Assembly (NCBI GenBank): GCA_035368605.1
Contig: DAOSLF010000003.1
Coordinates: 64,889 to 128,888, forward strand
Direction: 5' to 3'
DNA length: 64,000 nt
Source: Candidatus Omnitrophota bacterium
Lineage (GTDB): Bacteria; Omnitrophota; Omnitrophia; Omnitrophales; Aquincolibacteriaceae
Positions within the stretch are counted from its first letter, which is position 1; the number at the start of each line of letters is the position of its first letter. A model generated the notes under the pieces. It did no database searches and was not told the DNA's origin. It worked only from the letters and a program-made list of their open reading frames with translations. This document shows, piece after piece, positions 21,875 through 43,915 of this stretch. The position numbers and the translations under genes are program-made.

Positions 21875-22025
21875 GGGGCGATACTAATAAAAGCTTTCGG
21901 TGTTTGCAAGCGTCTGAATGCCCGACCTCACGCGGGGACCTGGAAATCGCAAATACATTTGGTGAATGAGTCCCGGGAAACCGGTCCCGGATTTCGGGCG
22001 TCGGCAGGCAAGCATTGCACCCTGT

Positions 22026-24032: not shown

Positions 24033-24081
24033 AAAACGGGGTCAGTCACCGTTTTAGAGAAATGGTGACTGACCCCGTTTT
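24033..24081. repeat. Palindromic repeat copy 1 (bidirectional terminator-like hairpin)
   Basis: AAAACGGGGTCAGTCACC-GTTTTAGAGAA-ATGGTGACTGACCCCGTTTTT: a 14-bp perfect stem flanked by an A-run and a T-run, sitting between convergent genes. Confidence 0.85.
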
Positions 24082-24082
24082 T

Positions 24083-25000
24083 CTAGCCGCCGGACGAGGA
24101 ATTTCCGCTGTCGCTGCCATCATCACTGCCGCGACCGGCGGCGGGCGCCCCCGGCATCACGGGCTGCGGCAATGACATCATCCCTCCCTGCGTCGCGCGG
24201 TGGCCGTATTCCTCCATTTGCGACATGAGCGACAACGTCCGGGTCATATCATCAATATCTTTAGCGGACGCCCCAAAGGTCGCAGCGTTTGGAACCGTCG
24301 CGGCATAACCGTTCGAGGAAAGATTCAGTTCGTCCATCAGCCCGTTCAGATCCGCTTCAGGAACCCGGAAAACGGGCGCCGGCGTGGTACCGGGGCCTTC
24401 AATAACGGTCCCAAAACCAATCTGCGAAATCTCCACGCCGGCCTGGGCCCCGCCTATATCATTGGACACAAAAATGCGGCCCGGCGGCGTCACGTCATCC
24501 CCCGCCGGCCCCAAAAGCACAACGAGAGAGCGGAACCCTTCCGATCTGCCCGCCACCACGGTCCCGCGGATACCGATACTTCCGGCGGGAAGGCCCACGG
24601 ACATGTTTTCCGGTTTCTTGTGTGCGATCTTCCCCGAAATAAACCGGAACACGCCCCGGAGGATATCCGTGTTCAGGATTCCGTCCTGGGTCACCGGATC
24701 ATAAGCGAAGTCATCGAGCCTGATCGCACTCGACGGACCGAGTGTAAAAACAGTTTCATCCATCAGCAAAATCTGGAGTCGCCCGTCATCTTTTGTCACC
24801 ACCTGTTCATCGAGAAATACGGGATCTCCGGCTTTCAGCTCTTTCACGGTGCCGTCCGGTGACACAGACTCCGCCGCACCGTGAACCACACCGACCACTC
24901 CGACCTGTATTTCCTGAGCCAGCACCGGGGGCATGGCAAACAGCGCCGTCAGGATAGCCACAAAAACAAAGATCTGTCCCCGTCGTTCAAGGTTTGTCAT
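24083..25000 (-). CDS. Secreted FecR-domain protein (paralogue 1) with Gly/Ser/Asp-rich C-terminal tail
   Basis: Signal peptide FVFVAILTALFAMPPVLAQE. FecR-like beta core VKELKAGDPVFLDEQVVTKDDGRLQILLMDETVFTLGPSSAIRLDDF. It is paralogous to the next gene, with long colinear identity (e.g. FRFISGKIA+KKPENMSV LPAG IGIRGT VAG). Confidence 0.7.
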   Translation of the reverse strand: MTNLERRGQIFVFVAILTALFAMPPVLAQEIQVGVVGVVHGAAESVSPDGTVKELKAGDPVFLDEQVVTKDDGRLQILLMDETVFTLGPSSAIRLDDFAYDPVTQDGILNTDILRGVFRFISGKIAHKKPENMSVGLPAGSIGIRGTVVAGRSEGFRSLVVLLGPAGDDVTPPGRIFVSNDIGGAQAGVEISQIGFGTVIEGPGTTPAPVFRVPEADLNGLMDELNLSSNGYAATVPNAATFGASAKDIDDMTRTLSLMSQMEEYGHRATQGGMMSLPQPVMPGAPAAGRGSDDGSDSGNSSSGG

Positions 25001-25096
25001 TTTTTCGCCTCTCGTATAAAAAGGCATGACCGGTTTTTCACCGGATTCGTCTTCGTGAATATTGCTCATTTGGGCCGGAACCTGGAACCAGTCTGA

Positions 25097-26029
25097 TTAT
25101 GGGGTGGTCCCGGAGCCGGTCGAATTACTACTCCCGCCGGAATACTCTTCGTGCGAAGCCGCCTGCTGTGCCGCATCATCGGCCGCGTCCTGTGCCGCGG
25201 TCCGGGACTGCTGATTCAGATAATCCAGTGCCGTCAGACCATTCATGATGGCATCAAGATCCGGTGTCTCTGAACCTGAAGGGACGTCGCCGGCCGTATC
25301 GCCTCCGAGCGTTTCCGCGGCACCATCCGACTGCCCGCCCCGGCCAACCTGCTGCCCAAGCGCGTTCGCAAGCTTCATGAGATCCTGTGGCGGCACGAGG
25401 AACGGGTCGAGCGGCGCCACATTCGGTCCCCCGATCACCGTCCCGAACCCGCTTTGGCTGATATTCACCCCGACCAGCTGGCCGTTCACCGTGTTACTCA
25501 CGTTAATCGCGCCGGAGCTCTGTCCGTTCGGTCCGCCGAGCAGAACGACCAGGGATTGCTGCCCCTGGCTTTGGCCCGCGACGAACGTCCCGCGAATCCC
25601 GATATGCCCCGCGGGGAGATCGACCGACATATTCTCGGGCTTTTTGCGGGCGATCTTCCCCGAGATGAAACGGAACGCCCCGGTCACGATATCGGCGTTC
25701 AGCTTCCCTTCGTCGGTCTTCGGGTCATAAACAAACTCGTCAAGCTTGATGCTTGAAGACGCACCGATCGTGAAAACGGTCTGATCGACAAGAAGGATCT
25801 GCATCCTTGAATCCGGGCTTGTCGTGACCGTGTCGCCCCGGAAGAGCGGATCTCCGCCTTTCAGCACACGCGTTTCACCGGCCGAAGTGGTCGCTTTCAC
25901 CTCCCCGGTAATCCCCGCCGCGACACCGATTTTCGCCGAAGTATCCGGCAAGGCCGCGACCAAGCTGCCGCAAATCAAAAACCCCGCCACGCACAAACAA
26001 GCCACCAGACTCCACGATTTGTTTTTCAT
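25097..26029 (-). CDS. Secreted FecR-domain protein (paralogue 2)
   Basis: Signal peptide SLVACLCVAGFLICGSLVAALP. FecR-like core VLKGGDPLFRGDTVTTSPDSRMQILLVDQTVFTIGASSSIKLDEF. The C-terminus is Ser/Gly-rich. Confidence 0.7.
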   Translation of the reverse strand: MKNKSWSLVACLCVAGFLICGSLVAALPDTSAKIGVAAGITGEVKATTSAGETRVLKGGDPLFRGDTVTTSPDSRMQILLVDQTVFTIGASSSIKLDEFVYDPKTDEGKLNADIVTGAFRFISGKIARKKPENMSVDLPAGHIGIRGTFVAGQSQGQQSLVVLLGGPNGQSSGAINVSNTVNGQLVGVNISQSGFGTVIGGPNVAPLDPFLVPPQDLMKLANALGQQVGRGGQSDGAAETLGGDTAGDVPSGSETPDLDAIMNGLTALDYLNQQSRTAAQDAADDAAQQAASHEEYSGGSSNSTGSGTTP

Positions 26030-26288
26030 TTTCCCCTCTCCTCAGCTTCAAAACTGAACCAACGTTGGATTAGCAAAGAAAACGGAACCCGCTTCGCGCA
26101 TAGTATAGCTGCGGGGGATTGTTTGAGATAGATGAAAATTCCGCAGGACAACGCTTCCTCTTCAAGCAACCGGAACAAGATCTGAAGAGTTCTCAATGTC
26201 AACCGTCAACGGCAACGGGAGGCTGCGGCGCTTGAGCTAATTGACGGCGCGCGGGAGACATCGGGGCGTAACCCCGATTCCGATCTCC

Positions 26289-27716
26289 CTAGAATTCCCA
26301 GCGCTTGGTGAACAGGCCTTCAATCTTGTTATTCGTGTAGGCGTAATTCGTGATGTTGGAGAGCGAGCGGTAATACTCGTAGGAAAGTGTGAACACAATA
26401 TCCTCCATCTGCCTGGGGAGGATCCTGGAGAGAAAAGCGGAAAGCGGGGTCCCAACCGTCACGCGGTAGCGGAATATCTTATCGTGACGGAAACGGCTCG
26501 CGACATCCGTTTCGGGTTCGTTATAACGGTCGAAATAAAGGTTCGCGGCATTGATCAGGAACGAACCCCGCCAGAGCGCCCACGTGTGGATCAGGTTCAT
26601 ATTGAACCGGTCGTAGCCATTGAACCCGGACTTGGCGTTCTTGTTCATATAGCCGATGCTCGGCGTGATCCGCATCGTCGCGACCGGCGCGTACGTGACA
26701 CCCCACAGGTAATCATATTCCGGGCCTTTGCGCTGCGCCCCGGTCGTGTTCTCCGAGACGCCGGAATAATTCTGGTACTCGTAACGGAAGTTCATGAAAC
26801 CGTTCAGTTTTCTCGTGAGCTGGCGATCGAACTGAAGGTTCAGCCCCAGCGTCCGGAGGTAGGTTTCGCGGGAAAGCAGGATATTGCTCGCGATAAAGGA
26901 CGGCGAAATATTAACCCACTTGGTCTTGTACCGCCCGCCGATCTCCCCCTGGTAGGTGCTGAGGTCGAGCGAATCGACCATAGTCTGTTCCTGCAGGAAA
27001 TACGTAAAAGACCCGAAAATCTCGTGGCCGGCCCGCATGCCGAGGTCGTGCGTGAAGTCCACGGTCGTAATGTTCGTGAAGTGCGTGTCGTCGCGCTTGC
27101 GGTTCGTGCCTTCGAGACCTTGTGCCACATCGTTCACGAGCTGGAACTTGGAGGAAGGCGCCGCGTTGCGGTTCGTGTCATAGCCCCAGCCCACGGTCTC
27201 CCGGAGACCGAAATGCGTCCGGCGCTTGCGGCGTTCGATACGTTTCCTGTATTCCCTGACCTGTTCCTCGATGTTCTTCGGAAGCGGCATGCCCTTCAGG
27301 GTCTCGAGCTCTTTTTGGGCCTCATTGAGGTTATCGAGACGATACAGCACGACGGCATAAAGGAGGCGGACGTCCGCGAGATTCGGATTGACGAGGAGGA
27401 TCCGCTCGAGGGTGGCGGCCGAGCCGAGGAGCTCGTTGTTGGCGATCTGTTGCTGAGCGAACCGGAAGTTCAGCGGAAGGTTATCGGGATCCTTGAGGAT
27501 ATCTTCATAGGTCACGCCGGTCCGGTATTTTTTCTCCTCTTCGAGCTTTCCGGATTTTTCAGCGACAGCGGCGGAATATTTTTCCGAACGGAGTTCCCGC
27601 TCGACAGCCTTGACCTCCTGCCCGACATCTTCGGCACGGGCCTGCGTGACGGGGAAAAGAAACGGGAGGACGGTGAAAAAAGCAATGAGGACCGGAGCGA
27701 ATCTGGAAGCGCGCAT
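26289..27716 (-). CDS. Outer-membrane beta-barrel protein with N-terminal TPR-like domain (Slam/DUF560-like architecture)
   Basis: Signal peptide VLIAFFTVLPFLFPVTQARAED, a TPR-like helical N-terminal third, then alternating amphipathic beta-strands. The protein ends in a C-terminal Phe (KRWEF), the beta-barrel signature. Confidence 0.55.
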   Translation of the reverse strand: MRASRFAPVLIAFFTVLPFLFPVTQARAEDVGQEVKAVERELRSEKYSAAVAEKSGKLEEEKKYRTGVTYEDILKDPDNLPLNFRFAQQQIANNELLGSAATLERILLVNPNLADVRLLYAVVLYRLDNLNEAQKELETLKGMPLPKNIEEQVREYRKRIERRKRRTHFGLRETVGWGYDTNRNAAPSSKFQLVNDVAQGLEGTNRKRDDTHFTNITTVDFTHDLGMRAGHEIFGSFTYFLQEQTMVDSLDLSTYQGEIGGRYKTKWVNISPSFIASNILLSRETYLRTLGLNLQFDRQLTRKLNGFMNFRYEYQNYSGVSENTTGAQRKGPEYDYLWGVTYAPVATMRITPSIGYMNKNAKSGFNGYDRFNMNLIHTWALWRGSFLINAANLYFDRYNEPETDVASRFRHDKIFRYRVTVGTPLSAFLSRILPRQMEDIVFTLSYEYYRSLSNITNYAYTNNKIEGLFTKRWEF

Positions 27717-27871
27717 GAGAGCCCTTTCTTTAACGGGTTCGGATTTGTGACAGTGTACTATAGGAACACCCTAAAAATCAAAAAGAGATTACCGCTTCCT
27801 TTTTTAGCGTCCGCTATCCGGAAAACCGCTCCAAATAACGGCTTTGTCGCTTTTGAAATCAAGATATACTA

Positions 27872-29827
27872 GTGCCCATGGAATTCCAGCTTGATCCTTT
27901 CCAGCAGCAAGCCGTTGAGTGGATTGAAAAAGACCACTCTCTCCTCATTTCGGCCCCGACCGGTTCCGGCAAGACCCTCATCGCGGAAAAGGCCGTCGAA
28001 AAGGCCTTCGCTCAGGGGAAGGGCGTTATCTACACGGCCCCGATCAAAGCCCTGAGTAATCAGAAGTTCCGCGATTTCCAGCAGAGGTTCGGCGCGGCCA
28101 ATGTCGGCATCCTGACCGGCGACGTCGCGATCAACGCGGGCGCCCGGCTGCTCATCATGACGACCGAGATTTACCGGAACTCCCTTTTCGAGAACAGTGA
28201 GCGCATCCGGAGTACGGGTTGGGTCATTTTCGACGAGGTCCATTACCTGGATGACCACGAGCGCGGGACGGTCTGGGAGGAGGCCCTTCTTTTCACGCCG
28301 CCTGAGATCAGGATTCTCGCGCTCAGCGCGACTATTCCGAACGTGCGGGAACTTGCATCGTGGATGCAGATCGTGCATGACCGGCCGGTTGCGGTGATCG
28401 AAGAAACAAAACGGCCGGTTCCGCTCCATTTCTTCTACCAATGCCAGGGGCATTTCTTCACGAACCTGAAATCGCTGCGCAAGGACGGCTACTATTCCCG
28501 CGATAACTGGGAACTTTCCGTGCGTGAGCGGCGGCGCGGGTTCAAACAAATGCGCGCGAAACCGAACCGCCTGAGTGAACTGCTCGATCACCTGATCCGC
28601 GAGGACCGCCTCCCCGCTATTTATTTTGCCTTCAGCCGGAAACGCACGGTCTACCTCGCCTGGGAGATCGCGCACTACGACCTGCTGAACAAGGCCGAGC
28701 GCGCGAAAGTCACGGAACTCTTCGACGAACTCTGCAAAAAATACGACCTCGCGGAAGAACGCTCCGCGCAGGACATGAAACCCCTGATCGAACACGGCAT
28801 CGCCTACCACCACGCGGGCATGCTTCCAACGCTCAAGGAAGTGGTCGAACGCCTTTTCACGAGCCGCCTGATCAAGCTGATCTTCACAACCGAAACCTTC
28901 GCGCTCGGAATCAATATGCCGGCGCGAACGGTCATCTTCGACGAACTTGAAAAATTCTACGGGACGGGCTTCAAGGCCCTCACGACCCGCGATTTCTACC
29001 AGATGGCGGGTCGCGCGGGGCGACGGGGCATGGACGCGAAAGGGTTCGTCTATTGCCGCATCCTGCCGCATGACATCCCCTTCCCGCAGGTCGAGCGCAT
29101 CATTTTCGGCCATCCCGAACCCGTCCGCAGCCAGTTCAACGCCGCTTACGCGACCGTTCTCAACCTCTACCGTGATTTCGGGGAGGATCTCCTTGATGTT
29201 TATCCGAGGTCCTTCCATTATTTCCAGTCCTCGCGGCGAATGCGCGATGACGGTTTCGACCTGATCCGCAGCAAGCTGAATCTGTTAAAAGAGCTGGGAT
29301 ACATCCGCGACGGGAAACTTTCGGAAAAGGGGGAATTCGCGTCCTCAATTTTCGGCTATGAACTGTTGCTCACGGAAATGTACCAGGACAAGGTCTTCGA
29401 GAGCTTCGACGAGGCGCGGCTCAACGTATTCCTCGCGGGCCTCGTGTTTGAGCCCCGTAAAGGGCTTGATGAGCCGCCCAGGCTTTCGCATCAAAACGAA
29501 CAACTGCTCAAGGTCACCCAGCAGTACCACCGGAACATCCACAAAAAGGAGCGGGCCCACCGGATCCGCCCTTACACGAAGCCGCCGCATTTCCATCTCG
29601 CGAAGGCGATCGAGGCGTGGACACGGGGGGAAGCGTTCGACAAGGTCATGCGGGACACTTCGGAGGATGAAGGAACGCTGGTCCGTTATTTCCGGATGGT
29701 GACCCAGCTCCTGCGCGAGATCGAGCACGCGCCTCACGCCCCGGAGGCACTCCGTCAGATGGCATTGAGGGCGCGCGGGACGATCGATCGCGACGTCGTC
29801 GACGCAGAAAAACAGCTCCGGGCCTAA
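27872..29827 (+). CDS. Ski2-like superfamily-2 DEAD/DEAH-box helicase
   Basis: Walker A APTGSGKT, DEVH box (VIFDEVHYL), SAT motif (LSATIPN), and motif VI QMAGRAGRRG. Confidence 0.8.
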   Translation: MPMEFQLDPFQQQAVEWIEKDHSLLISAPTGSGKTLIAEKAVEKAFAQGKGVIYTAPIKALSNQKFRDFQQRFGAANVGILTGDVAINAGARLLIMTTEIYRNSLFENSERIRSTGWVIFDEVHYLDDHERGTVWEEALLFTPPEIRILALSATIPNVRELASWMQIVHDRPVAVIEETKRPVPLHFFYQCQGHFFTNLKSLRKDGYYSRDNWELSVRERRRGFKQMRAKPNRLSELLDHLIREDRLPAIYFAFSRKRTVYLAWEIAHYDLLNKAERAKVTELFDELCKKYDLAEERSAQDMKPLIEHGIAYHHAGMLPTLKEVVERLFTSRLIKLIFTTETFALGINMPARTVIFDELEKFYGTGFKALTTRDFYQMAGRAGRRGMDAKGFVYCRILPHDIPFPQVERIIFGHPEPVRSQFNAAYATVLNLYRDFGEDLLDVYPRSFHYFQSSRRMRDDGFDLIRSKLNLLKELGYIRDGKLSEKGEFASSIFGYELLLTEMYQDKVFESFDEARLNVFLAGLVFEPRKGLDEPPRLSHQNEQLLKVTQQYHRNIHKKERAHRIRPYTKPPHFHLAKAIEAWTRGEAFDKVMRDTSEDEGTLVRYFRMVTQLLREIEHAPHAPEALRQMALRARGTIDRDVVDAEKQLRA

Positions 29828-29875
29828 AAACGGGGTCAGTCACCATTTCCCTAAAATGGTGACTGACCCCGTTTC
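29826..29875. repeat. Palindromic repeat copy 2
   Basis: AAAACGGGGTCAGTCACC-ATTTCCCTAAAA-TGGTGACTGACCCCGTTT, between the convergent helicase gene and addB. Confidence 0.85.
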
Positions 29876-32800
29876 TTGTCTTCCTCGAGAATCTCCTGCA
29901 AGATAACGGGCAGACGCCACTTTTCGATCCGGCAGAGGGCGGGATAAGGACAGAATTTTTCGCAGTCCCGCGGACGGACAAGAATCTTCAGGTCCTTGAT
30001 CTCCACCGTGAACCGTTTCACGAACTCGACGGTCCGCGCGAGGACATGGCGGAAATCCGCGTCTTCGAGAAGCGCCACCTTGCTTGAAATACCGAGACTG
30101 AATTTCCCGGCCGACTCCTTACGGTAAAATCCGCTCCGCGAACCTTCCTTCAACGAATAGAGCTCGCCGCCCACGGGTTCCAGCTTGAGAAGTTCTTCCA
30201 CCGCCAACACATAGAGCGGCAGTTGCAGCGAGGTGCCGATCGCGAGGGCCTCGCGGTCCAGTTTCGCCGTTCGCTTGTAATCCACGACCAGGCCCGCCTT
30301 CCCTTCCCCATCCGTGTCGATCCGATCGATTCGGCCCCGAATCCGGATTTCCTTTTCGCCGTCCCGGATCCGGAACGCCGGAGACCGGTAGTCCTTTCCC
30401 GTCCCGAAACCGTATTCGACATACGCCGGACGGAGTTGGCGGACCGAAAGTTTCTCGATCTCCTTTTCGAGGACCGAAAGGAGCATCTCCTTCACGTCGG
30501 CCCGGTCCAGATCCTCCCGGAATTTCTGTTCCGCCGTGAGGGGGTATCTCTGAAAAGCCTCTTTCAGTTTTTCCTCGACAAACTTTTCAGGCGCCGCGTG
30601 GTGATTTCCCGTCCGGATGAAGTCTCGGAAATATTCCTCGAGCACCCAATGCAGGATGTTCCCCTTCTGCCGGGAAGTAATGTCTTCCGTCGGGTCCTGG
30701 AGATTGAGGATGTGATGCGCGAAATAACGGTAAGGACATTTCGCGAATTCCTCGAGGCGGGTCGGGCTGGCCTCTCCGACATCAAAAAAACCGCCGTTCC
30801 GGATTCCGGGGTCCCCGATCACGGCCTCGATGGGGGTGATCGCCCGCAGGAGCTTGTCGAGAGGAACGCGCGCGGGCGGACCTTCCGCGGGAATCTTGCC
30901 GCCGGACTCAACGCGCTCGCGTAACTCTCCGAGAAAAGCGACCTCGCGTTCGCGGCCCGTGATCGCCTCCTCCGCCCCGGGATAGGGCCTCGCGAGCTTC
31001 TGCTTCACGACGGGGACCTTCCCGTCAAAAAGCCTCTGGACCTCCTCGAGATAAAAGGACCGGAGCGATTCCTTGCCTTCGAGGTCGATGTGAGGGTACG
31101 AGAAATAAAGGCGCTCGCTCGCCCGCGTCACGGCGAGGTAGAAAAGATATCGCTCAAGACTCTGCCGGGGCAGGCGTTCCTGCAACGGGTGTTCGAGCCC
31201 TGCGTTCATGATCGCGCGTTCCCAGTCCGAAAGAAGCGGATCCTCGCGAATCTGCACGGGAAAAACCCGCTCGAGCATCCCGGCCACGAAAACAACTCGG
31301 TATTCTTTTTGACGAGCAAGCGACACGTCGTAGATCTGGACCCGGTTCTTGTCGCGCTCGTGGAGTGAATACACATCGAGTTCGACAAGCCCGAGGAACT
31401 GATCGGCGAAGGAATCGAACAAAACGGCGTGCGCGCCGACTCTGGAGGCGTTCATCCGGATCTCTTCAAGCAGTGTCGTGAAACGCCGCGCGGCCGAGGC
31501 GTCGCTCCGCGTGAACGGCGTGTAATCGTCCGAGATTTCGAGGATGCCGAAGGTGTGGCCGACCGCGTGCGTGAGAAGACGGATATGATCGGCCGCGGTT
31601 TCCGCCGCGAGAAAAGCGGCCTCTAGCTCAAGCAGGACCCCGAGGAATTTGTCCTTGCCCGCCCCTCCGTTCTCCGCAAGCGCCGTCTCATTAACCCAGG
31701 GGGCTGTCCACGCTTCGCGGCCTTCGAGGACACCGTTCTCGAAGCTCCCCGCCTCGAATTTCGAGAGCCAGTCGTTGTCCCTCGCGAGATCGCCGAATTT
31801 CCGCACGTATCCGGATTTGACGAACGCGAGAACATCCTCCCGTCTCCAACCGTTCCGGAATATCGAAAGAAGCGCCGCCACCGCACCGATCCAGGGCGAG
31901 AGCTTGAGGCGGTCGCGTTCATGGACCTCGACCGGAATCCCGTAGCGTTCGAAGATCGGGGGAACAACCCGTCCGTAATCGCGGACCTGACGAAACAGCA
32001 CCGCGAAATCGCTGTAACGGTAGTTCCCCGACGCGTAAAGCCCGTGGATCTCGCGTGCGATCAGCTCGATCTCGCCTTCGATTCCGACTGCATCAAGAAA
32101 AGTGATCCCCTCCGGGGGTCTGGCTCCGTTGCGGTCCCCTGAAATGGTGCCTGACCCCGTTTTTATATTTTGGCCGAACAGATTCCGCTGAAGATGTAAA
32201 AGCGCCGGTTCCCTCGTCCGGTGACAAACGGGTTTCATCTTTTCCACCTTGAAACCGGCTTCCTCGAGCATCGCACGGGTGGAACGGATGGTCTCGAAAG
32301 CGTCCTCACGAACCGGGCCCTCTTCCGCCGTCAGTGTCACGATCATCTCATCCGACAGGGCGGCGAGTGCCCGGACATATTCGGCCTGGAGGTTGGAGAA
32401 ATCGAAAAAGCCATCGAGCCAGAGCGCTTTGAACCGGACCGGCGGCTGCCCGCCTTTGCGGGTCCGCTCCCGCCAGATCCGGAGCGTGTCCTGGAGATCC
32501 CTGAGACCGCGCTCCTTCAGCTCCGACTCATATCCTTCATAGACCGCGGCAAGCGCCTCGTATTTGGGGCCGAAGGCTGGTTCATATTTTTTGAGGGCGT
32601 TCATCCTCTCGCGGAATTCCGCGGGCGTCACGCAGGCTTCCTTGAGCTCCGAAATCCCGCCCAGGAGAAGTCCGACGAATCCCGGCAGGTCTTTCACGTC
32701 CCGAAAATATTCCCAGTCGTTCTTGCCGAGGAGATCGCGGACGATAATGGCCCGCGTAAGGCTTGAAACGACCGGAATCTCCGGGACCCGGAAGACATCG

Positions 32801-33021
32801 GTGATAAGGCGGGAAAGGGTCGTGACGCGTTTATGAAAAAAACCCGGAAGTCCCCGCTGGATGAGGAGTGAAACCACCCGTTCGGTGTGCTCGGCAGAGG
32901 GGACGATCAGGAAAGTGTCGGGCTCGAGCGGATTCGACGTCCGGAGGCTTTTTTCGAAGGCCTCCAGCAACGCGCGGGTCTTCCCGCATCCCGCCGGGCC
33001 GATCAGGAGAGTCTTCGTCAT
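29851..33021 (-). CDS. addB: AddB-type helicase-nuclease subunit B (inactive-helicase/PD-(D/E)XK nuclease, Fe-S)
   Basis: 1056 aa. N-terminal Walker A GPAGCGKT, C-terminal nuclease motif VVDYKRT, and a Cys cluster (CPYRYF ... CEKFCPYPALC) as in AddB Fe-S staples. Confidence 0.7.
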   Translation of the reverse strand: MTKTLLIGPAGCGKTRALLEAFEKSLRTSNPLEPDTFLIVPSAEHTERVVSLLIQRGLPGFFHKRVTTLSRLITDVFRVPEIPVVSSLTRAIIVRDLLGKNDWEYFRDVKDLPGFVGLLLGGISELKEACVTPAEFRERMNALKKYEPAFGPKYEALAAVYEGYESELKERGLRDLQDTLRIWRERTRKGGQPPVRFKALWLDGFFDFSNLQAEYVRALAALSDEMIVTLTAEEGPVREDAFETIRSTRAMLEEAGFKVEKMKPVCHRTREPALLHLQRNLFGQNIKTGSGTISGDRNGARPPEGITFLDAVGIEGEIELIAREIHGLYASGNYRYSDFAVLFRQVRDYGRVVPPIFERYGIPVEVHERDRLKLSPWIGAVAALLSIFRNGWRREDVLAFVKSGYVRKFGDLARDNDWLSKFEAGSFENGVLEGREAWTAPWVNETALAENGGAGKDKFLGVLLELEAAFLAAETAADHIRLLTHAVGHTFGILEISDDYTPFTRSDASAARRFTTLLEEIRMNASRVGAHAVLFDSFADQFLGLVELDVYSLHERDKNRVQIYDVSLARQKEYRVVFVAGMLERVFPVQIREDPLLSDWERAIMNAGLEHPLQERLPRQSLERYLFYLAVTRASERLYFSYPHIDLEGKESLRSFYLEEVQRLFDGKVPVVKQKLARPYPGAEEAITGREREVAFLGELRERVESGGKIPAEGPPARVPLDKLLRAITPIEAVIGDPGIRNGGFFDVGEASPTRLEEFAKCPYRYFAHHILNLQDPTEDITSRQKGNILHWVLEEYFRDFIRTGNHHAAPEKFVEEKLKEAFQRYPLTAEQKFREDLDRADVKEMLLSVLEKEIEKLSVRQLRPAYVEYGFGTGKDYRSPAFRIRDGEKEIRIRGRIDRIDTDGEGKAGLVVDYKRTAKLDREALAIGTSLQLPLYVLAVEELLKLEPVGGELYSLKEGSRSGFYRKESAGKFSLGISSKVALLEDADFRHVLARTVEFVKRFTVEIKDLKILVRPRDCEKFCPYPALCRIEKWRLPVILQEILEEDKKRGQSPF
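32111..32166. repeat. Diverged copy of the palindromic repeat, embedded in frame inside addB
   Basis: CGGGGGTCTGGCTCC-GTTGCGGTCCCCTGAAA-TGGTGCCTGACCCCGTTTT aligns to the intergenic repeat. The right arm has 1 mismatch; the left arm has 3 mismatches and 1 indel. It encodes the AddB segment NIKTGSGTISGDRNGARPPEG. Confidence 0.6.
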
Positions 33022-33146
33022 GGCAAAAGCTCAAACCCGAATTTCCGGATCCGGAGTCCGGATGCCGGGCTCCGGGAGAATTTCGGACAGGGATCGATTT
33101 TGTTTTTTAAACGTCCGGGCCTGGATCATTGTTTTGTCATCTGAAA

Positions 33147-33644: not shown

Positions 33645-33647
33645 GAT

Positions 33648-34862: not shown

Positions 34863-34901
34863 CCGCTCTCCACGTCCGGGGCACCGAAGACCCCATCGGG
34901 A

Positions 34902-35900: not shown

Positions 35901-35931
35901 GTGAAATCTCCAAATGCTAAAGTGACACGCT

Positions 35932-36546: not shown

Positions 36547-36593
36547 GAAGCCCGCCCGGCGGTTCCCGGGCGGGCCTTCATTCGGACAACCGC

Positions 36594-36905: not shown

Positions 36906-37060
36906 TGTTCATTTTCTCCTCTTGGTTAGTTTCCCGAATGGGGCGTATTCTAGCTTTCATCCCCCTCCATCGTCAATGTTTTCGGCCGGCCGTTCATTCG
37001 CGGGAACACAAGGAATCGAGACACGTCTGACTCAAATCTTTCGGGTATGCGCTAAAAAAA

Positions 37061-37939
37061 TCACCCCTCTGGACATTGTTTTCTTATGGAACACCGGGAC
37101 TGATCCTCCAGACGGGCAATACGGTCCCCGACCGGCGGATGCGTGCTGAAAAGGGCCGACCATCCCTTTCCCGAAAGCGGGTTCATGATGAAAAGATGCG
37201 CCGTGGCGGGCTGGGCGTCCCTTAGCGGTGTTCGGGCCGAAGCGGCCTCGATCTTCCTGAGAGCGCTCGCGAGGTAGAGCGGATTCCCGCAAAGCTCACC
37301 TCCCCTTTTGTCCGCCTCGTATTCCCGCGACCGCGAGATCGCGAGCTGGATAAGCGTCGCGGCAAGCGGCATGAGGATCGAGAACAGAAGCAGCATGATC
37401 GGATGCATCTGGCTCCTTTCATCCCGTTCCCCGCCGCTCCAGTGCAGGGACCAGCGGAACATGCCGGCAATCATACCAAGAGCCCCCGCGAGCGTCGCAA
37501 CGACCGTGGAAAGAAGAATGTCGCGGTTCAGGATATGCGACATCTCATGACCGAGCACGCCCTCAAGCTCTTCCTGGTTGAGAAGCGTCACAATGCCATG
37601 TGTCACGGCTATCGCCGCGTGCCGGGGGCCGCGTCCTGTCGCGAACGCGTTGGCGGAAGCGGACGGCAGGAGACATATCCTCGGCGGCGGGATCCCCGCC
37701 TTATCCGCGAGACGCCGGACGATCTCATGGACCTCGGGGGCCTCCTCCTCCGAAAGCGGCTGCGCCCGGTAAAGGGAAAGAACCATTCTGTCGCTGAACC
37801 AATAGGCGCCAAAATTCATCGCGACAGCCGCGAAAAAGGCGAACAGCATTCCTTCCCTTCCGCCGAGCAGGCTGCCGCACCAGATCAAAAGCAGGGTCAG
37901 GAGAACGAGAAGGAAAGTAGTCTTAAGAAAGTTCGTCAT
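37061..37939 (-). CDS. htpX: Zinc metalloprotease HtpX (M48 family)
   Basis: HEMSH zinc motif, a downstream EYEAD glutamate, and four TM segments. Confidence 0.85.
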   Translation of the reverse strand: MTNFLKTTFLLVLLTLLLIWCGSLLGGREGMLFAFFAAVAMNFGAYWFSDRMVLSLYRAQPLSEEEAPEVHEIVRRLADKAGIPPPRICLLPSASANAFATGRGPRHAAIAVTHGIVTLLNQEELEGVLGHEMSHILNRDILLSTVVATLAGALGMIAGMFRWSLHWSGGERDERSQMHPIMLLLFSILMPLAATLIQLAISRSREYEADKRGGELCGNPLYLASALRKIEAASARTPLRDAQPATAHLFIMNPLSGKGWSALFSTHPPVGDRIARLEDQSRCSIRKQCPEG

Positions 37940-38026
37940 AAACGGTCTGAACTGCCGGGACGGAATCAGCGGTCACATTCGTCGACATCGGGGTCACCTC
38001 GCGAAGTTGTCCCGCAGCCGCTTGTG

Positions 38027-38290
38027 TCAAAGATGAAATTTATCCTTCTTGCGCTCCAGCGTGCGATGAAACCTGTCCTCAACATCGGCGAGCGCTTCCT
38101 TGAGCGCCGAAAAAATCTTCGCCACCTGGTCGCCGTTATAGGAATACTGGGACGTCGCGAGGTTGCCGATCAAACGGATCTTGTCGAGCGTCGCCGCGAC
38201 CCGCTGCTCCGCGAGACGCCTGAACCGTTCTTCTTTTGTTTCCCCGGGCCGGCTTCCGGCGGTTTCATCGGGATTCCCTGTGTTTTCCAC
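38027..38290 (-). CDS. Small acidic hypothetical protein
   Basis: 87-aa ORF in an otherwise unassigned gap between htpX and a HAD hydrolase. Supported by coding potential only. Confidence 0.35.
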   Translation of the reverse strand: MENTGNPDETAGSRPGETKEERFRRLAEQRVAATLDKIRLIGNLATSQYSYNGDQVAKIFSALKEALADVEDRFHRTLERKKDKFHL

Positions 38291-38315
38291 GACACTCTCC
38301 TTTTGTTTTTTTCGG

Positions 38316-38936
38316 TCAGAAACGGACCTTCAGTTTCCGGAGTGCTTTTTTGAGGCGGTCGGGACCGCGAAAGCGGATAGCGTGCATCCCGGCCTTACGC
38401 GCCCCGGCAACGAAACTTTTCATATCGTCGATAAAGACGGTCTCTTCGGGCCTGAGACCGATCTTCTTCAGGACACGCCGGTAAATCTTGAGGTCGGGCT
38501 TGCGGGCCCCCACCTCATGGGACGGGAACATCCGACAAAAATGCCTCAGGATCCGGAATTCTTTCTTGATGTGCGTGAAATGAAGCGCGTTCGTGTTCGA
38601 GATGAGATAAAGCGGATAATGCTTCCCGATCCTCGCGAGCAATTTGTCCATGCCGGGGTTTTCCCAGAAGATGTCATTCCAGTAACGTTTGAAGGTCATG
38701 AACGGGACCGGCTTTTTAAAGACCCGGCAGGCCTCCCGGTAGAATTCCCGGGTCGAGATCTCCCCCCGCGTGTAGGCCTGTTCGAATCTGGAAAGAAAAA
38801 AGTGCGCCCAGATCCGCGCCTGGGAGATGCCGCCCGCCTCGGAGAAGCGACGTGCGGCTTTTTTAACGTCATAATTCACGAGGACGTTGCCAAGATCGAA
38901 GATCACAGCCTTGATTTCAGGGGGTTTCTTTTTCAT
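38316..38936 (-). CDS. HAD-family hydrolase
   Basis: Motif I AVIFDLGNVLV, a conserved S/T in ISNTN, and motif IV VFIDDMKSFV. The start is the internal Met MKKKPPEIK. Confidence 0.7.
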   Translation of the reverse strand: MKKKPPEIKAVIFDLGNVLVNYDVKKAARRFSEAGGISQARIWAHFFLSRFEQAYTRGEISTREFYREACRVFKKPVPFMTFKRYWNDIFWENPGMDKLLARIGKHYPLYLISNTNALHFTHIKKEFRILRHFCRMFPSHEVGARKPDLKIYRRVLKKIGLRPEETVFIDDMKSFVAGARKAGMHAIRFRGPDRLKKALRKLKVRF

Positions 38937-38989
38937 GGGCAAAGGATTGTAACATCGCAAGCCACCCGCCACAAGACACACGACTCGGT

Positions 38990-39351
38990 TTTATACGGGA
39001 GCGTATCCCGCCACGGCAGTCCGCAAATACTCGCGATACTTGTCCATTCATCGGTTGCCCTCTGTGCAGTTGCTTGTTTTTCGAAAACACAATCCACCAG
39101 ATTTCCCGGGATAATCTTTTTTTCTTACCCTTTATCCCTTCACTAGTTACAGCTTTTTATCAGCACTAAGCACTAAAGAACAACTATCTTTTTTAAAAAC
39201 TATAAAATGATTAAAAAAATAATAATAAATAAATCTATGCTATGTCTTGCTTCTTTTTGCGTGTTGCATTTAATCCAGAAACAAATTACAATTATAGCAG
39301 GGTCGACATGAACTAATAGCGTCTTGGCGGAAGGAGCGAGGAGAAAAACAA
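38990..39351 (+). promoter_or_regulatory. Very AT-rich (~25-30 % GC) leader upstream of the pseudopilin operon; probable promoter region and left boundary of the island
   Basis: Runs such as aaaaactataaaatgattaaaaaaataataataaataaatct, in a genome that is otherwise >60 % GC. I did not recognise a sigma-54 or other specific consensus. Confidence 0.3.
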
Positions 39352-39771
39352 ATGGGACCTCTTCCTGACAAACGTGGTTTTCGAGGGTTCACGCTCATCG
39401 AGGTAATGGTTGCCTTGTTCGTGACCACAATTGCCATTGCGGGATATGTCGGATCTAACATTGCGACCCAACGACAGGCCGCAGAGTTACATGAGCGAAC
39501 CATCGCAGTACAAGAGGCTCAGCGTGTCATTGAACAAATGCGTGATAAAGCCAGAACAAACAATTTTCCCGGAGATGTCGTGGCCGCCTTCCCTGATGGC
39601 GGAACCGTTGCCGGAATGAATGCCCTGCCCGATGAACGGGTTCAGGTCGATTATGTAAATCCGGCGGCTACTCCTCTGGATACCACTGTCACCGTGACAT
39701 GGCAATCCTACACCTCCCGCCGGCAAACGGCGGCCCTGAGGGCTTATATTGCAAAGAGGAAAACGCCATGA
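39352..39771 (+). CDS. Type IV pilin-like minor pseudopilin (prepilin-type N-terminal cleavage/methylation domain)
   Basis: Leader MGPLPDKRGFRG followed by FTLIEVMVALFV: G-1, F+1, E+5 and a hydrophobic helix. 139 aa. Confidence 0.75.
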   Translation: MGPLPDKRGFRGFTLIEVMVALFVTTIAIAGYVGSNIATQRQAAELHERTIAVQEAQRVIEQMRDKARTNNFPGDVVAAFPDGGTVAGMNALPDERVQVDYVNPAATPLDTTVTVTWQSYTSRRQTAALRAYIAKRKTP

Positions 39772-40316
39772 GAAAACTCACATCACAAAAAGGATTTAAT
39801 CTCATGGAAGCGATGCTCGCCGTGGCGCTGTCCAGCATTGTGGTTTTCGGAGTCTTTTTGCTTTTTCGGGTCGGCAGCGAACAATCTCAAATAAACCAGT
39901 CCCTCATGGATCTCAAAGACTCCTCTCGCGAAGCCATTTATAAAATGGTCCAGGAGATTCGCCAATCTGCTCCCGGTCACGTGATCATTGAAGCCAACGG
40001 TCAGTCAATCCGTTTTAAAATTCCTCATCCGGATCACTTGACAGGTCCTGGTTTTGACGTCGACTGGGATTCCGCACACACCATCACCTACGCTCTCGGC
40101 GGGGCTAACTCCCGGCAAATCATACGAACCGATACCACAACCGGGATGACCTCCATCATCGCCAACGATATCACGGCTCTGCGGTTCTCTGAAAATTCCT
40201 CGCCGTCCAGGATTGTGACGATAACTTTAAATGCCCAGAAAACGCCACCCGGCGGGCGAGCGGTTCCATCCACTCCCCTGCAAATAACGGCTCAAGCGGA
40301 TGTGAGAAACCCATGA
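39768..40316 (+). CDS. Type IV pilin-like minor pseudopilin (GspJ/PilW-like size)
   Basis: Leader MRKLTSQKG followed by FNLMEAMLAVALSSIVVFGV (E+5). Its start codon overlaps the previous stop (ATGA). Confidence 0.75.
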   Translation: MRKLTSQKGFNLMEAMLAVALSSIVVFGVFLLFRVGSEQSQINQSLMDLKDSSREAIYKMVQEIRQSAPGHVIIEANGQSIRFKIPHPDHLTGPGFDVDWDSAHTITYALGGANSRQIIRTDTTTGMTSIIANDITALRFSENSSPSRIVTITLNAQKTPPGGRAVPSTPLQITAQADVRNP

Positions 40317-41521
40317 AAACTCATCCTTTCTCCCAAATCGGAAATCAGAGGGGGTTCGTATTGACTGTGGTTTATCTTATCCTCGCGCTCGTAGCCGTTT
40401 TTTCGGTCGCTTATTTCTCCCGCTGCGTTGCATTTGTCCAGGCTAATGAGCGCAATATTCACAAAACCGTGGCATTTAACATGGCTGAATCGGGCATTGA
40501 TTGGGCCATCAGCCAGTTAGCATCAAACACCGAATACACCGGAACCTCCGCCTACGTCCCCCTGGACACCGATTACATGAGGGGCGGATTCACGGTCTCG
40601 GTCATCACGGATGACTCCGATCCCAAAATCCGGATTATCCGGGCAAGCGGATTCGCCCCTTCCAATGACCCTACCCAGCGAGGGTATCAAACATCAAGTC
40701 TTCTTGCTTACGTTCAATCCGGATCCAGTAGCGCTTTTCGCGCCGGAATTTTCGCGACAGATTCCATTCAAATGTCGGGAAACGCCCAAACGGACTCTTA
40801 CGACTCTCGGAACGGGGCTTATGGTGGAAGCAATGTCGCCTATAACGGTGGCATTGAGACCAATACAACGGGCCCCCAGGAAGTCACGCTAAGTGGAAAC
40901 GTCATGATCCAGGGGGGCATCACCGTCGGCCCGACAGAATCGCCCTCTTCGGTGGTATCAGTACGCGGCAATGCCATGATTACGGGAAGTATTTTATCCA
41001 ATTCGGCTCCCGTCACCTTCTCTGATGCCGTGGCTCCGGTCAGCGCGAGCGGCGAGCTCAAAATCAGCGGAAACACAACGTACTATCTCATGCCCGGAAC
41101 CTATCACTTTACGTCCATGAGTATAACGGGAAACGCCAAACTTGTTCCGACCGGCCCCGTGTCCATTTATGTCGATGGAACTATCAAGATAGCGGGAAAC
41201 GGTATCGCAACTGCCGACAACCGTCCACCCAACCTTCTCCTGTATGCGACCGGCAACTCAAGCGTAAGTTTTTCCGGAAACGCGTCTTTCTACGGAGCTA
41301 TCTACGCGCCGAACTCGACCGTCTCCGTATCCGGGAACGGCAGATGCTATGGGGCCATTATTGCCAAAGATTATAAAAATACGGGAAATGGCCAGATCCA
41401 TTTTGACGAAGCGTTGAAAGAAATCCAGGGCGGCAGCTCCGGCGGAATAACCATCCTGGCCTGGCAAGAACAAAACACCCTGCTGTGGGGAACGGGAACA
41501 GCGGCAGATACGGAAACCTGA
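40313..41521 (+). CDS. PilX/GspK-like tip pseudopilin lacking Glu+5, with periodic SGN-repeat (predicted beta-helix) domain
   Basis: N-terminus QRGFVLTVVYLILALVAVFS has a prepilin-like hydrophobic helix with no E+5, as in GspK/PilX. An (S/T/A/R)GN motif recurs every ~20-25 aa (SGNAQ, SGNVM, RGNAM, SGNTT, TGNAK, AGNGI, SGNAS, SGNGR, TGNGQ). The start is ATGA-coupled to the upstream gene. Confidence 0.6.
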   Translation: MKTHPFSQIGNQRGFVLTVVYLILALVAVFSVAYFSRCVAFVQANERNIHKTVAFNMAESGIDWAISQLASNTEYTGTSAYVPLDTDYMRGGFTVSVITDDSDPKIRIIRASGFAPSNDPTQRGYQTSSLLAYVQSGSSSAFRAGIFATDSIQMSGNAQTDSYDSRNGAYGGSNVAYNGGIETNTTGPQEVTLSGNVMIQGGITVGPTESPSSVVSVRGNAMITGSILSNSAPVTFSDAVAPVSASGELKISGNTTYYLMPGTYHFTSMSITGNAKLVPTGPVSIYVDGTIKIAGNGIATADNRPPNLLLYATGNSSVSFSGNASFYGAIYAPNSTVSVSGNGRCYGAIIAKDYKNTGNGQIHFDEALKEIQGGSSGGITILAWQEQNTLLWGTGTAADTET

Positions 41522-42081
41522 CGGAACTTGGCGAAGGATGTTTAGAACGCAGGGGTTGAAAATCTTTATCCTCCAAACCCCGAACCCGCTCCCCGTCGCG
41601 TCTCTTCCCTCGCGCACAATTCCGGAATCTGCAAAACCCCCGGTATTGAAGGTAAGCCACGCCCAAATATTTCTTTTGGGTTGAGTTATCCTTGACAAGC
41701 TCCGCTGGTGAAGTCGTGCGTTCTTGTATACCCATCTCCCCCCCCCGCAACCTTTTCCATCGGGATGGAAGGGTCCCCCTTGTGATCACGGCAGACCTCA
41801 CTTCGGGAACAATCCCGGGAACGACCGTCATATCCGTCCGAAAGGGCCGAGGCCGGCTCCCGGACGCGCGCCAGATTCTTGCGGGGGCTTTTTGATCACG
41901 GACAATCTCATGACGGACTGGTGTTTCTCCCCTCTTGAAGTTATACTGGCGCGAGTTCATCCCGATTTCGACAAGGGAATCGTCCGGCGGCCAAAAACGT
42001 TTTTCTTTATTTCAAAACCCGCACGATCAAGATCCAATAATCGCGCGAACCGCGCCCAACGAAAGGCATTGTCCCGAATCC

Positions 42082-43272
42082 ATGAAAACTCTTAAAGGCA
42101 ACGCGATCATCGCCCAATCCGGCGGCTGCACGGCCGTCATCAACCAGAGCCTGGCCGGAGCGGCCATGGCGGCCCGCGCGTCAAAAACGATCACCGGCGT
42201 CTGGGGGGCCCGTAACGGGGTTGAGGGGATTCTGAAAGATTCCCTGATCGATCTTTCCGCGCAGCCGGCTGTCCTTCTCCGGAAGATCGCAGAGACGCCT
42301 TCGGCGGCGCTCGGGTCCTCCCGTCATAAATTGAAGCCCGGCGACGACAAAAAGATCCTCGCGAACCTGAAACGGCGGAACATCCGTTATCTGTTCCTGA
42401 TTGGCGGCAATGACACTGCGAACACGAGTCTCCGGATCGCCAGGACCGCGCGTGAGAACCGCTATGAACTTCGCGTGATCCATATCCCCAAAACGATCGA
42501 CAACGACCTGATGGAGACCGACCATTGCCCCGGCTACGGCTCGGTCGCGCGGTTCGCGGCGATCACCACGCAGGAAGCCGCCCTCGACACGCGGGCCATG
42601 AAGAACGTGGACCCGATCAAGATCATTGAGCTCATGGGACGCAACTCGGGCTGGATCGTCGCCGCGGCCGCGCTCCTGAAACGTTCCGCCGCCGATGCCC
42701 CGCACATCCTGCTCATCCCGGAAATCCCGCTCGACGAGACCGCCCTGATCAAGCGCACGGAGGCCGTCATGCAATCGGTCGGTTACTGTATCATTGTCAT
42801 TTCGGAGACGATCCGCGATCACGGCGGAAACCGGATCGGGCAGAAAACAGAAGGCGTAACATCGGACCCGTTCGGCCACAAATACGTGGAAGGGACCGCG
42901 GCGCGGCTTGCCTCGATCCTTGAAAAGAACCTCGGCGTGCGCGCGCGCTTCGACAAACCGGGCACGATCCAGCGCATGTCCATGCCCTATATTTCGACGG
43001 TTGACCAGAAAGAAGCCTGTCAGGCGGGAGCTCGGGCGGTCGCGTGGGCTCTGAAAGGGATGTCAGAGGTCATGGTGGGGTTCGCGCGGAAATCCGGGAA
43101 ACGCTACGCGATCGAATACCGGCCGGTGCCGCTCGGAAGAATCCCGAACAACGAACGCTACCTCCCCGCGGAGTTTTTCGACGCGAAACACTCCATGATC
43201 ACACCGGCCTTTGCCGAGTACGCGCTTCCGCTTCTCGGTCCCGGTCTTCCGGAGTTCCCGGTATTCAAATAA
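42082..43272 (+). CDS. pfk: 6-phosphofructokinase (GGNDT motif; possibly PPi-dependent type)
   Basis: QSGGCTAVINQSL ... LFLIGGNDTANTS ... IHIPKTIDNDL ... LMGRNSGW. The start was chosen at the internal Met MKTLKG. Confidence 0.85.
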   Translation: MKTLKGNAIIAQSGGCTAVINQSLAGAAMAARASKTITGVWGARNGVEGILKDSLIDLSAQPAVLLRKIAETPSAALGSSRHKLKPGDDKKILANLKRRNIRYLFLIGGNDTANTSLRIARTARENRYELRVIHIPKTIDNDLMETDHCPGYGSVARFAAITTQEAALDTRAMKNVDPIKIIELMGRNSGWIVAAAALLKRSAADAPHILLIPEIPLDETALIKRTEAVMQSVGYCIIVISETIRDHGGNRIGQKTEGVTSDPFGHKYVEGTAARLASILEKNLGVRARFDKPGTIQRMSMPYISTVDQKEACQAGARAVAWALKGMSEVMVGFARKSGKRYAIEYRPVPLGRIPNNERYLPAEFFDAKHSMITPAFAEYALPLLGPGLPEFPVFK

Positions 43273-43280
43273 CGGAGCTG

Positions 43281-43661
43281 TCAGCCGGCGGTATCGGCAG
43301 CGCGGTAACGGTCGGTCACTTCGCGCGCCTTCGGCCGGATCGCGAGCTTTCCATTCACATCCACGACCGGGATGAGGAAATAATCCGTTTGAAGACCCGC
43401 GGTCTCCATTCGGGAAACCAGTTCCCGTTTGATGCCGGGATCGCTGATATCCTTATCGAGATAGTCCGTCCCCTTTCGGGCCAGGTCTTTTTTAAGGTCA
43501 GCGCAGGCCGGACACCCCTCTTTCCCATAGACCGCGACATAGGGCTTTTGAGATAGCGGTCCCGAGGGAACGGCAACAAAGCGGGCAGAGGAGGCGCAGC
43601 CGTTCAAAAAAACCGCGAGAAGAACGCCCGCGGCCGCGCAAATAACGGTTTTTTGTCTCAT
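43281..43661 (-). CDS. Glutaredoxin/thioredoxin-fold lipoprotein
   Basis: Lipobox AVFLNGC, then YGKEGCPACADLKKDL (CPxC redox motif). Start MRQKTV with SD AAGGGG. The track ORF extends upstream only because it reads through the palindromic repeat. Confidence 0.6.
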   Translation of the reverse strand: MRQKTVICAAAGVLLAVFLNGCASSARFVAVPSGPLSQKPYVAVYGKEGCPACADLKKDLARKGTDYLDKDISDPGIKRELVSRMETAGLQTDYFLIPVVDVNGKLAIRPKAREVTDRYRAADTAG

Positions 43662-43866
43662 GCTGTCTTTCCCCTTGAGGTTCCCGTTGTCGTCCATGAA
43701 CACCTTTCGGCTTTTCTGATCGACGGGCTCAGGAACGCGTTCACGGGCGTCGGGACCTTGTGCTTTTTCCCGAGCCGCACGACCATCCCGTTGATCGCGT
43801 CGATCCCGGTACGTTTCTCCTTCTCGAGGTCCTGGAGCATAGAGGCGTGATAGCCACAGGTCCGCC

Positions 43867-43915
43867 AAAACGGGGTCAGTCACCATTTCCCTAAAACGGT
43901 GACTGACCCCGTTTT
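43867..43915. repeat. Palindromic repeat copy 3
   Basis: AAAACGGGGTCAGTCACC-ATTTCCCTAAAA-CGGTGACTGACCCCGTTTTT, immediately downstream of the era stop codon. Confidence 0.85.

Follow-up and report, generated by a model that had tools for sequence, protein, structure and literature searches.

Repetitive extragenic palindromic (REP) sequences and REP-associated tyrosine transposases (RAYTs) have been studied as REP/RAYT systems, or REPtrons, in Escherichia coli and Pseudomonas (PMC2817692, PMC3116915, PMC3479197). RAYT-like genes flanked by inverted repeats that share a GGGGWSAS motif, termed TIRYT, occur across phyla (Di Nocera et al. 2013, PMC3733652); that paper had also already described REPs inside genes, stop codons provided by REPs, and a leaning toward genes of replication and repair, and it reports effects of REPs on termination and mRNA decay (PMC3733652). 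Here, we analyze a family of hairpins in a 64,000-nt stretch of DNA from a Candidatus Omnitrophota bacterium (GenBank GCA_035368605.1, contig DAOSLF010000003.1, positions 64,889 to 128,888), referred to below as the window. We consider it likely that these hairpins are a nonautonomous palindromic family of Omnitrophota, of the REP or "TIRtron" type, that is linked to a RAYT in related genomes. Our literature search found no paper tying RAYTs or REPs to Omnitrophota; this reading would extend a partnership that has mostly been studied in Proteobacteria to an uncultured phylum.

The window carries three intact copies of the element, which we assign to neither strand. A repeat finder placed the 23-nt arms of copy 1 (24032-24082) at 24032-24054 and 24060-24082 (96% complementary), the 21-nt arms of copy 2 (29826-29874) at 29828-29848 and 29854-29874 (100%), and the 22-nt arms of copy 3 (43867-43915) at 43867-43888 and 43894-43915 (95%), with a 5-nt apical loop in each. 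A previous sequence-only reading had noticed near-identical palindromes at these three sites, and that much was borne out (arms 95 to 100% complementary, 0 of 100 shuffles). Its 14-bp stem was an underestimate: copies 1 to 3 share a perfect stem of 18 bp (AAAACGGGGTCAGTCACC) that can be extended to 21 to 23 bp, and copy 2 has a perfect 21-bp stem closed by a CCCTA loop. Nor does copy 1 have a different loop, as had been claimed; its minus strand has the sequence of copy 3 but for a single base of the loop (CTCTA against CCCTA), so that it is the same element, with one substitution and with its loop in the orientation opposite to that of copies 2 and 3. The family consensus consists of an A-run, GGGGTCAGTCACC, ATTTCCCTAAAAT, GGTGACTGACCCC, and a T-run, to which the window lineage adds one C/G pair (AAAAC...GTTTT), and the outer arm GGGGTCAG agrees with the published GGGGWSAS motif.

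The proposed check of folding energies supported the hairpins: they fold at -37 to -46 kcal/mol as RNA on either strand (z, -8.7 to -9.6) and at -23 to -26 kcal/mol as single-stranded DNA (z, -9 to -14). With stems of 18 to 23 bp, they fit the description of a REP as a short (about 20- to 50-nt) palindrome with a stable stem-loop. The count of three was right for intact copies, but a degenerate fourth copy had been overlooked; short-word BLAST of the consensus located it at ~32118-32164 on the minus strand, within an addB-like gene. The arms of copy 4 are complementary at 11 of 13 positions, its loop is enlarged, and its structure in the mRNA sense is no longer significant (z, -0.02). The same search returned no copy in the window besides these four. 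None of the hairpins matched Rfam, a gathering scan of the whole window gave one tRNA only (6012-6085, minus strand), and a literature search with the arm sequence retrieved only unrelated primer matches. Three other candidates were dropped, namely, integron attC sites (the palindromes are perfect, and the core site is missing), CRISPR (no array), and a pairing of TCACC/GGTGA with the 3' end of 16S (no supporting pattern).

The element is not confined to this locus, a possibility that the sequence-only reading had named as grounds for abandoning its idea; it recurs in other Omnitrophota genomes and in metagenomes. A scan for both arms (exact arms only), in which each species was represented by a single genome, yielded 17 loci. 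The Omnitrophica metagenome-assembled genome (MAG) RIFOXYB12_FULL_50_7 holds 13 exact copies on 12 contigs (L002-L005, L007, L009, L013-L017), all with the loop ATTTCCCTAAAAT or its reverse complement and with AAA/TTT flanks. The other five loci include one more Omnitrophota MAG and one unclassified MAG with a similar element, as well as a MAG of Solirubrobacterales and an assembly of Deltaproteobacteria, which have the arms alone in common and differ in their loops. A metagenome scan added 42 loci, with further copies of the element in metagenome contigs, and the window strain was found again in several metagenomes; viral contigs contained no match to the hairpin pattern. Identical arms with the same 13-nt loop stand at nonorthologous sites in other species (AddB 54 to 63% identical).

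Exact arms also occur, with unrelated loops, in genomes of 37 to 76% GC. An arm common to unrelated genomes, with differing loops and spacings, is what would be expected of DNA-uptake signals or operators, that is, of protein-binding words on double-stranded DNA that are palindromic by happenstance. However, every window occurrence of the 13-mer GGGGTCAGTCACC with up to two mismatches (seven, against 1.28 expected; none of 100 shuffles reaches seven) belongs to a hairpin, with no single words; the spacing between the arms, which ranges from 5 to 22 nt between families, fits recognition of a hairpin and not of duplex DNA by a dimer; and the copies lie at 3' ends rather than at promoters. We find such an origin scarcely credible. 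The identity of the 13-mer across phyla, at first sight a deep puzzle, is largely defused when 8 of its 13 bases are seen to be the GGGGWSAS recognition motif; the other five could coincide fortuitously, given the thousands of families that are linked to a RAYT (2563 homologue clusters).

Two of the families that share the 13-nt arms have distinctive architectures of their own. In a high-GC family (L034, L036, L039, L044, L049, and L052; metagenome contigs of 74 to 76% GC), the arms enclose a 22-nt loop, TTGAGAYTCGTGGGAGTYTCAA, that is itself a hairpin (TTGAGAYTC-GTGG-GAGTYTCAA); the flank GATNGGCGGAACGTGCGGGAAAC is conserved on one side only, and the loop flips independently of it. The Solirubrobacterales MAG has 62-nt near-perfect palindromes without an unpaired loop (L001 2594-2655, L010, and L011), arranged as GCACCACAG-GGGGTCAGTCACC-GTGCGGTGC|GCACCGCAC-GGTGACTGACCCC-CTGTGGTGC.

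The link to a transposase comes from related genomes. We ran tblastn with an E. coli RAYT query sequence and then confirmed the match with curated models; an IS200 TnpA query gave nothing significant by tblastn. At three loci of related genomes (L026, L014, and L042), the matched open reading frame (ORF) lies exactly between two hairpin copies and encodes 223 to 226 aa; the gene at 321-1001 of L026 (226 aa) is also present in L014, and L042 has an 85% variant. The L026 protein scores 83.8 bits on the NCBIfam model NF047646 for REP-associated tyrosine transposases (equivalog cutoff, 80) and fails the IS200 model (20.9 bits versus a cutoff of 55). It matches Pfam Y1_Tnp (E = 1e-15), its sole PDB match is 4ER8, E. 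coli TnpA-REP (E = 1.3e-7), and it has the HUH (NHFHF) and YVEANP tyrosine motifs. At L074, a RAYT that is 67% identical is again flanked by the repeat, one copy having the window-type AAAAC...GTT flanks, and the order radC-like/RAYT/HAD-hydrolase is kept; this synteny suggests that the RAYT is a single-copy gene inherited vertically. A RAYT is thus flanked on both sides by the same repeat in L014/L026, L042, and L074. A more distant RAYT at L075 is bracketed by other arms, GGGGACAGGCTAC, whose outer 8 nt, GGGGACAG, still fit GGGGWSAS; hence, the repeat covaries with the enzyme while the motif is retained.

These RAYT genes also bear marks of the repeat in their own coding sequences. The L026 RAYT ends in KIKRGQSPFP*, a tail that the hairpin downstream of the gene encodes, the loop providing the TAA; this arrangement recurs in the AddB protein of the window. 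The protein has 2563 homologues, and among the 15 closest of them (P0121-P0135), 11 have hairpin-encoded C-terminal tails. In 10 of the 15, the tails are of the KRGQ type (for example, KRGQSPF, KRGQTLF, KRGQSQF, KRGQAPF, KRGQATF, and the variant KRCQAPL), indicating that the outer GGGGTCAG is constant and the inner stem variable; in P0122, the reading frame runs through the entire hairpin. Nearly all RAYT homologues of the clade (C termini of P0121-P0240) share an AT-hook-like motif, GLESTLRPRGRPKK, which E. coli TnpA-REP lacks; it is a matter of speculation whether this motif could contact the A/T runs beside the hairpin. Most RAYT-bearing contigs are just 1 to 5 kb long.

The bracketed gene also bears on another possible origin, in which the hairpin would be a minimal MITE (a miniature transposable element with inverted repeats) of a DDE-type insertion sequence (IS), with back-to-back terminal inverted repeats moved by an IS transposase and not by a RAYT. 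Two inverted 13- to 18-nt arms around a short spacer would suit such an element, and the arms begin with GGGG, as do the inverted repeats of the Tn3 family. Yet the sole gene repeatedly bracketed by the repeat is the Y1/RAYT gene, no copy has a direct target-site duplication (the flanks are inverted A/T runs), and no IS with these ends is present in the ~545 kb of fetched loci. We judge an IS origin to be very unlikely. Kinship with the Tn3 family itself, suggested by the GGGGTC start, was rejected: Tn3 requires 38-bp inverted repeats and makes 5-bp duplications, and here the arms are far below 38 bp and the duplication is missing.

Under the REP/RAYT reading, the RAYT would bind the hairpin extruded on single-stranded DNA, most likely via the outer GGGGTCAG (GGGGWSAS), and would cut and rejoin beside it, so that copies spread or are removed; these steps are modeled on what has been established biochemically for E. 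coli TnpA-REP and for the enzymes of IS200/IS605 (PMC3479197). Copies would survive where they do little harm, after or on stop codons and in protein surface loops. Once transcribed, the 18- to 23-bp stem would most likely serve the flanking genes as a bidirectional intrinsic terminator or as a hairpin that stabilizes the 3' end.

The positions of the copies show a bias toward gene ends. In a set of 26 unique Omnitrophota-type copies, examined against ORFs of at least 80 codons, 16 have an ORF that stops in the interval from 16 nt ahead of the arm (-16) to where the element ends (+45 nt), 7 of them on both sides. REPs are described as favoring 3' ends where genes converge or run in the same direction; this preference is seen here as well, and all three intact window copies conform to it. 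The earlier claim that the hairpins sit at stop codons held up, with the cyclase, FecR-gene, helicase, and era stops abutting the copies (flanking genes were assigned by Pfam). The 50 nt that separate the stop codons of two convergent genes are taken up entirely by copy 1; the genes are a CHASE2-adenylate/guanylate cyclase gene on the plus strand (21966-24032; TAA 24030-24032) and, on its far side, a FecR-domain gene on the minus strand (24083-25069; TAG 24083-24085). Copy 2 likewise separates convergent neighbors. The plus-strand Ski2-like DEAD/DSHCT helicase gene (27872-29827) ends with a TAA (29825-29827) with which the A-run of copy 2 opens; an exact-protein lookup of this helicase gave no record. 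The opposing minus-strand gene is the addB-like gene (29851-33021), whose 1056-aa product has ADDB_N, UvrD_C, and PD-(D/E)XK domains and homologues in Omnitrophota exclusively, the closest 63% identical. This gene does not end before the hairpin, as had been supposed; its TAG (29851-29853) sits inside the loop of copy 2, so that its last seven codons (KRGQSPF*) are the right arm of the hairpin.

Copy 3 lies directly downstream of the era GTPase gene (43915-44838, minus strand), whose TAA (43915-43917) overlaps the end of the copy by one base. On its other side, also on the minus strand, is a C-terminal remnant of panE, the ketopantoate reductase gene (43658-43840; 60 codons; PF08546 ApbA_C; translation ...GYHASMLQDLEKEKRTGIDAINGMVVRLGKKHKVPTPVN). 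The ketopantoate reductase homology starts ~5 codons or less from copy 3, and the hairpin thus marks a truncation or rearrangement junction.

Beyond gene ends, the element enters reading frames. On each strand of its 39-nt core, TAA/TAG within the loop and TGAcTGA within the 3' arm close two frames, and the third stays open as GVSHHF[PR][KE]MVTDP; with AAA/TTT flanks, the unit measures 45 nt, or 15 codons. Predicted repeat-encoded residues comprise GVSHHFPKMVTDPF-containing peptides and the AddB tail KRGQSPF. Among the 26 copies, 5 are in frame within genes, with one Pfam domain spanning the KGVSHHF[PR][KE]MVTDPF insert in each case: Glyco_transf_9 (GT9), CofH_C (in a CofH/MqnC radical-SAM enzyme), NAD(P)HX dehydratase, adh_short_C2 (SDR), and Peripla_BP_2 (in a periplasmic binding protein). 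The sequence-only reading had dismissed peptides read through the hairpins as artifacts. Two of these, ORF 29646..29981 and the stretch that extends 43281..43985 at its 5' end, do seem to be artifacts, but the AddB tail KRGQSPF* and the in-frame KGVSHHF[PR][KE]MVTDPF of relatives do not. In two proteins of other loci, L004:2181-3638 and L007:3271-4458 (both minus strand), apparent extra insertions share the peptide (A)[IS]TQCLSP, which hints at a second in-frame palindromic family in the RIFOXYB12 genome, perhaps of the GGGGACAGGC type.

AddB looks like a recurrent landing site, often beside A-runs (lysine codons). In the window, the sole internal in-gene copy is the decayed copy 4, which encodes approximately aa 286-302 of AddB (KTGSGTISGDRNGARPPE), a linker of variable length among 39 aligned homologues. 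The addB gene of another Omnitrophota MAG (L025, 3161-6448) contains three REP-type hairpins. One, encoded by GGGGTCAGGCACC-21 nt-GGTGCCTGACCCC, accounts for a 10-aa insertion, KRGQAPFSDE (aa 188-197), that is absent in 39 orthologues; a second occupies the same linker as the window relic; and a third, related hairpin with TAA in its loop supplies the C terminus, KRGHA*.

In a bolder reading, the family is a still-active hybrid of REP and the Rickettsia palindromic element (RPE) that is near harmless by design. Its length would be a multiple of three, with one open frame per strand and the same 15-aa peptide in either orientation, and a RAYT with an AT-hook-like tail would aim it at A-runs (such as TAA-A stops and poly-lysine codons), continuously rewriting protein C termini and surface loops in Omnitrophota. 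If this were true, the targets of the hybrid would include the RAYT's own tail as well as repeated hits in AddB, a nuclease that processes hairpin and double-strand-break DNA. We regard this reading as doubtful.

The gene-end copies have the anatomy of intrinsic terminators. In copies 1 to 3, a GC-rich stem is bracketed by an A-run and a T-run, in keeping with the sequence definition of such a terminator. In a simple terminator scan, no site of the window looked more like a terminator than copies 1 and 2 (plus strand), and the same scan showed no overall excess over shuffles. The transcribed copies probably act as bidirectional terminators or mRNA-end hairpins, judging from their sequence. The only other strong terminator-like hairpin of the window, AGGCCCGCCCGG-GAACCG-CCGGGCGGGCTT with a T-rich tail at 36548-36577 (minus strand), is unrelated to the REP family.

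This anatomy, the location at gene ends, and the presence of the sole three intact copies within 20 kb could be explained if the hairpins were ordinary intrinsic terminators, alike by convergence or local gene conversion and neither mobile nor tied to a transposase. Against that stand the same arms and 13-nt loop at nonorthologous sites in other species, the copies that bracket the RAYT gene, and the in-frame copies inside enzyme domains, which make no sense for a terminator. Moreover, in L023, the closest relative to keep addB and the helicase gene in this arrangement, the orthologous junction is a 108-nt spacer without a hairpin. Ordinary terminators are thus a highly improbable explanation, and the sequence-only reading of a REP/RPE-like dispersed element, rather than three independent terminators, is supported by the recurrence in Omnitrophota and by the RAYT bracketing. 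Other relatives have different palindromes at the addB/helicase junction. A palindromic family of GGGACTCG repeats (AAAACGGGGACTCG...CGAGTCCCCGTTTT; L076 4380-4490 and L024 8135-8250) occupies gene-end junctions beside addB or the helicase gene in other Omnitrophota.

Whether the copies do anything for their neighbors is less clear-cut. The element may be purely selfish or neutral, tolerated at gene ends with no role in termination or mRNA stability: only 2 of ~13 convergent junctions in the window carry it (by a rough, heuristic gene map), it is missing at the orthologous site in L023, it has copies inside genes, and copy 3 stands at a gene truncation. On the other hand, the very stable stems with their A and T runs appear to match what a bidirectional terminator needs, and REPs elsewhere have been reported to affect termination and mRNA decay (PMC3733652). 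We hold the absence of any role to be possible but on the unlikely side.

The presence of copies varies from one related genome to another, and the element also appears to change in place. A metagenome contig, L022, agrees with the window on both sides of copy 3 but has the 13-nt loop reversed; four other samples are like the window. The assembly k-mer (141) is longer than the element, so the flip should be read supported; a library artifact is possible. The RAYT-flanking copies have their loops in the same orientation in L026 and in opposite orientations in L074. Template switching within the palindrome during replication would be the simplest explanation for such flips. Copy 1 showed no polymorphism in five full-length metagenome contigs (all identical), a sixth (L073) ending inside the hairpin, and copy 2 showed none in one extra contig (L077). 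Short-read assemblies often break within the hairpin, as at the end of L073, so that the element fragments Omnitrophota assemblies.

Several observations weigh against a RAYT-linked REP family. The 64-kb window has no RAYT gene, and its tie to the transposase appears to be one of repeat homology, not of co-occurrence in the same genome. The apparent copy number looks modest, with three intact copies and a decayed one in the 64 kb of the window and, in RIFOXYB12_FULL_50_7, 13 exact copies (where exact arms were searched), against >100 in classical REP families. Unlike most described REPs, the element has no GTAG or CGTC tag, its ends being A-run/GGGG and CCCC/T-run; it therefore falls outside both superfamilies of PMC3733652. 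The loci compared revealed neither a copy in the act of excising or inserting nor any signature of a target site; a TA beside some copies, considered as a target-site duplication, is explained by neighboring TAA/TAG stops and is missing on the other side. Finally, with the addB stop in the loop, a terminating ribosome would mask the 3' arm of the hairpin, which argues against efficient addB termination if transcription and translation are tightly coupled; termination at addB would then need loose coupling.

If the REP/RAYT reading is correct, one family unites gene-end hairpins (as in REPs), in-frame protein insertions (as in RPEs), and the flanks of a domesticated Y1 transposase, and it does so in an unusually clean form, with perfect stems and a conserved loop. 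The GGGGWSAS outer stem would then be a concrete candidate recognition site for this transposase clade. The hairpins matter in practice as well: they break metagenome assemblies and create spurious ORF extensions, and since the element also adds real 7- to 15-aa peptides to proteins, annotators of Omnitrophota should mask or model it.

The window contains a second, unrelated palindrome in two copies, CCGATCCAACCT-CGT-AGGTTGGATCGG at 3743-3769 and CCTTATCCAACCT-CGC-AGGTTGGATACGG at 55724-55752, neither with an Rfam match at E ≤ 1. The latter lies ~20 nt after a TATAAT-like box and ~30 nt before GGGAGG-ATG and could be a regulatory hairpin of a 5' untranslated region.

Compared with known systems, the Omnitrophota element resembles different ones in different respects. 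Small hairpin-loop inversions at gene 3' ends distinguish very close relatives in chloroplast noncoding DNA, and there, as here, the loops of perfect hairpins flip between identical flanks; this likeness covers the flip only and not the origin. Like Rickettsia RPEs and the small MITEs of Coxiella, our palindromes lie in frame in functional protein genes, place their peptide in a tolerated loop, and alter protein termini. RPEs are about 100 to 150 bp long, and we know of no dedicated transposase for them; the Omnitrophota element differs in being 45 to 50 bp, in being tied to a RAYT, and in its unrelated sequence. The likeness to TIRtrons, drawn from the repeats and not from TIRYT protein groups, is closer: GGGGWSAS describes the outer 8 nt (GGGGTCAG in L026 and L074, GGGGACAG in L075), a RAYT-like gene stands between the repeats and shares its 3' end with them, and the repeat families are moderately abundant and in some cases self-complementary. 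TIRtrons have one arm per side, whereas each flank here is a full two-arm hairpin. Relative to REP/RAYT systems, the stems are longer (18 to 23 bp) and, unlike those of REPs, perfect; copies appear to be fewer; the Omnitrophota element showed neither clusters of the BIME kind nor REPIN doublets; the host is an uncultured phylum of the PVC group; and the RAYT, at ~220 aa, is extended at its C terminus up to an RPRGRPKK-like sequence, compared with 165 aa and no extension in E. coli TnpA-REP. In common with those systems, the element is a short GC-rich stem-loop dispersed in near-identical copies; its copies gather no more than 20 nt from the 3' ends of genes that converge or run in the same direction, and they can supply stop codons; and, in relatives of the window strain, a single-copy HUH/Y1 transposase gene is bracketed by the repeat in conserved synteny.

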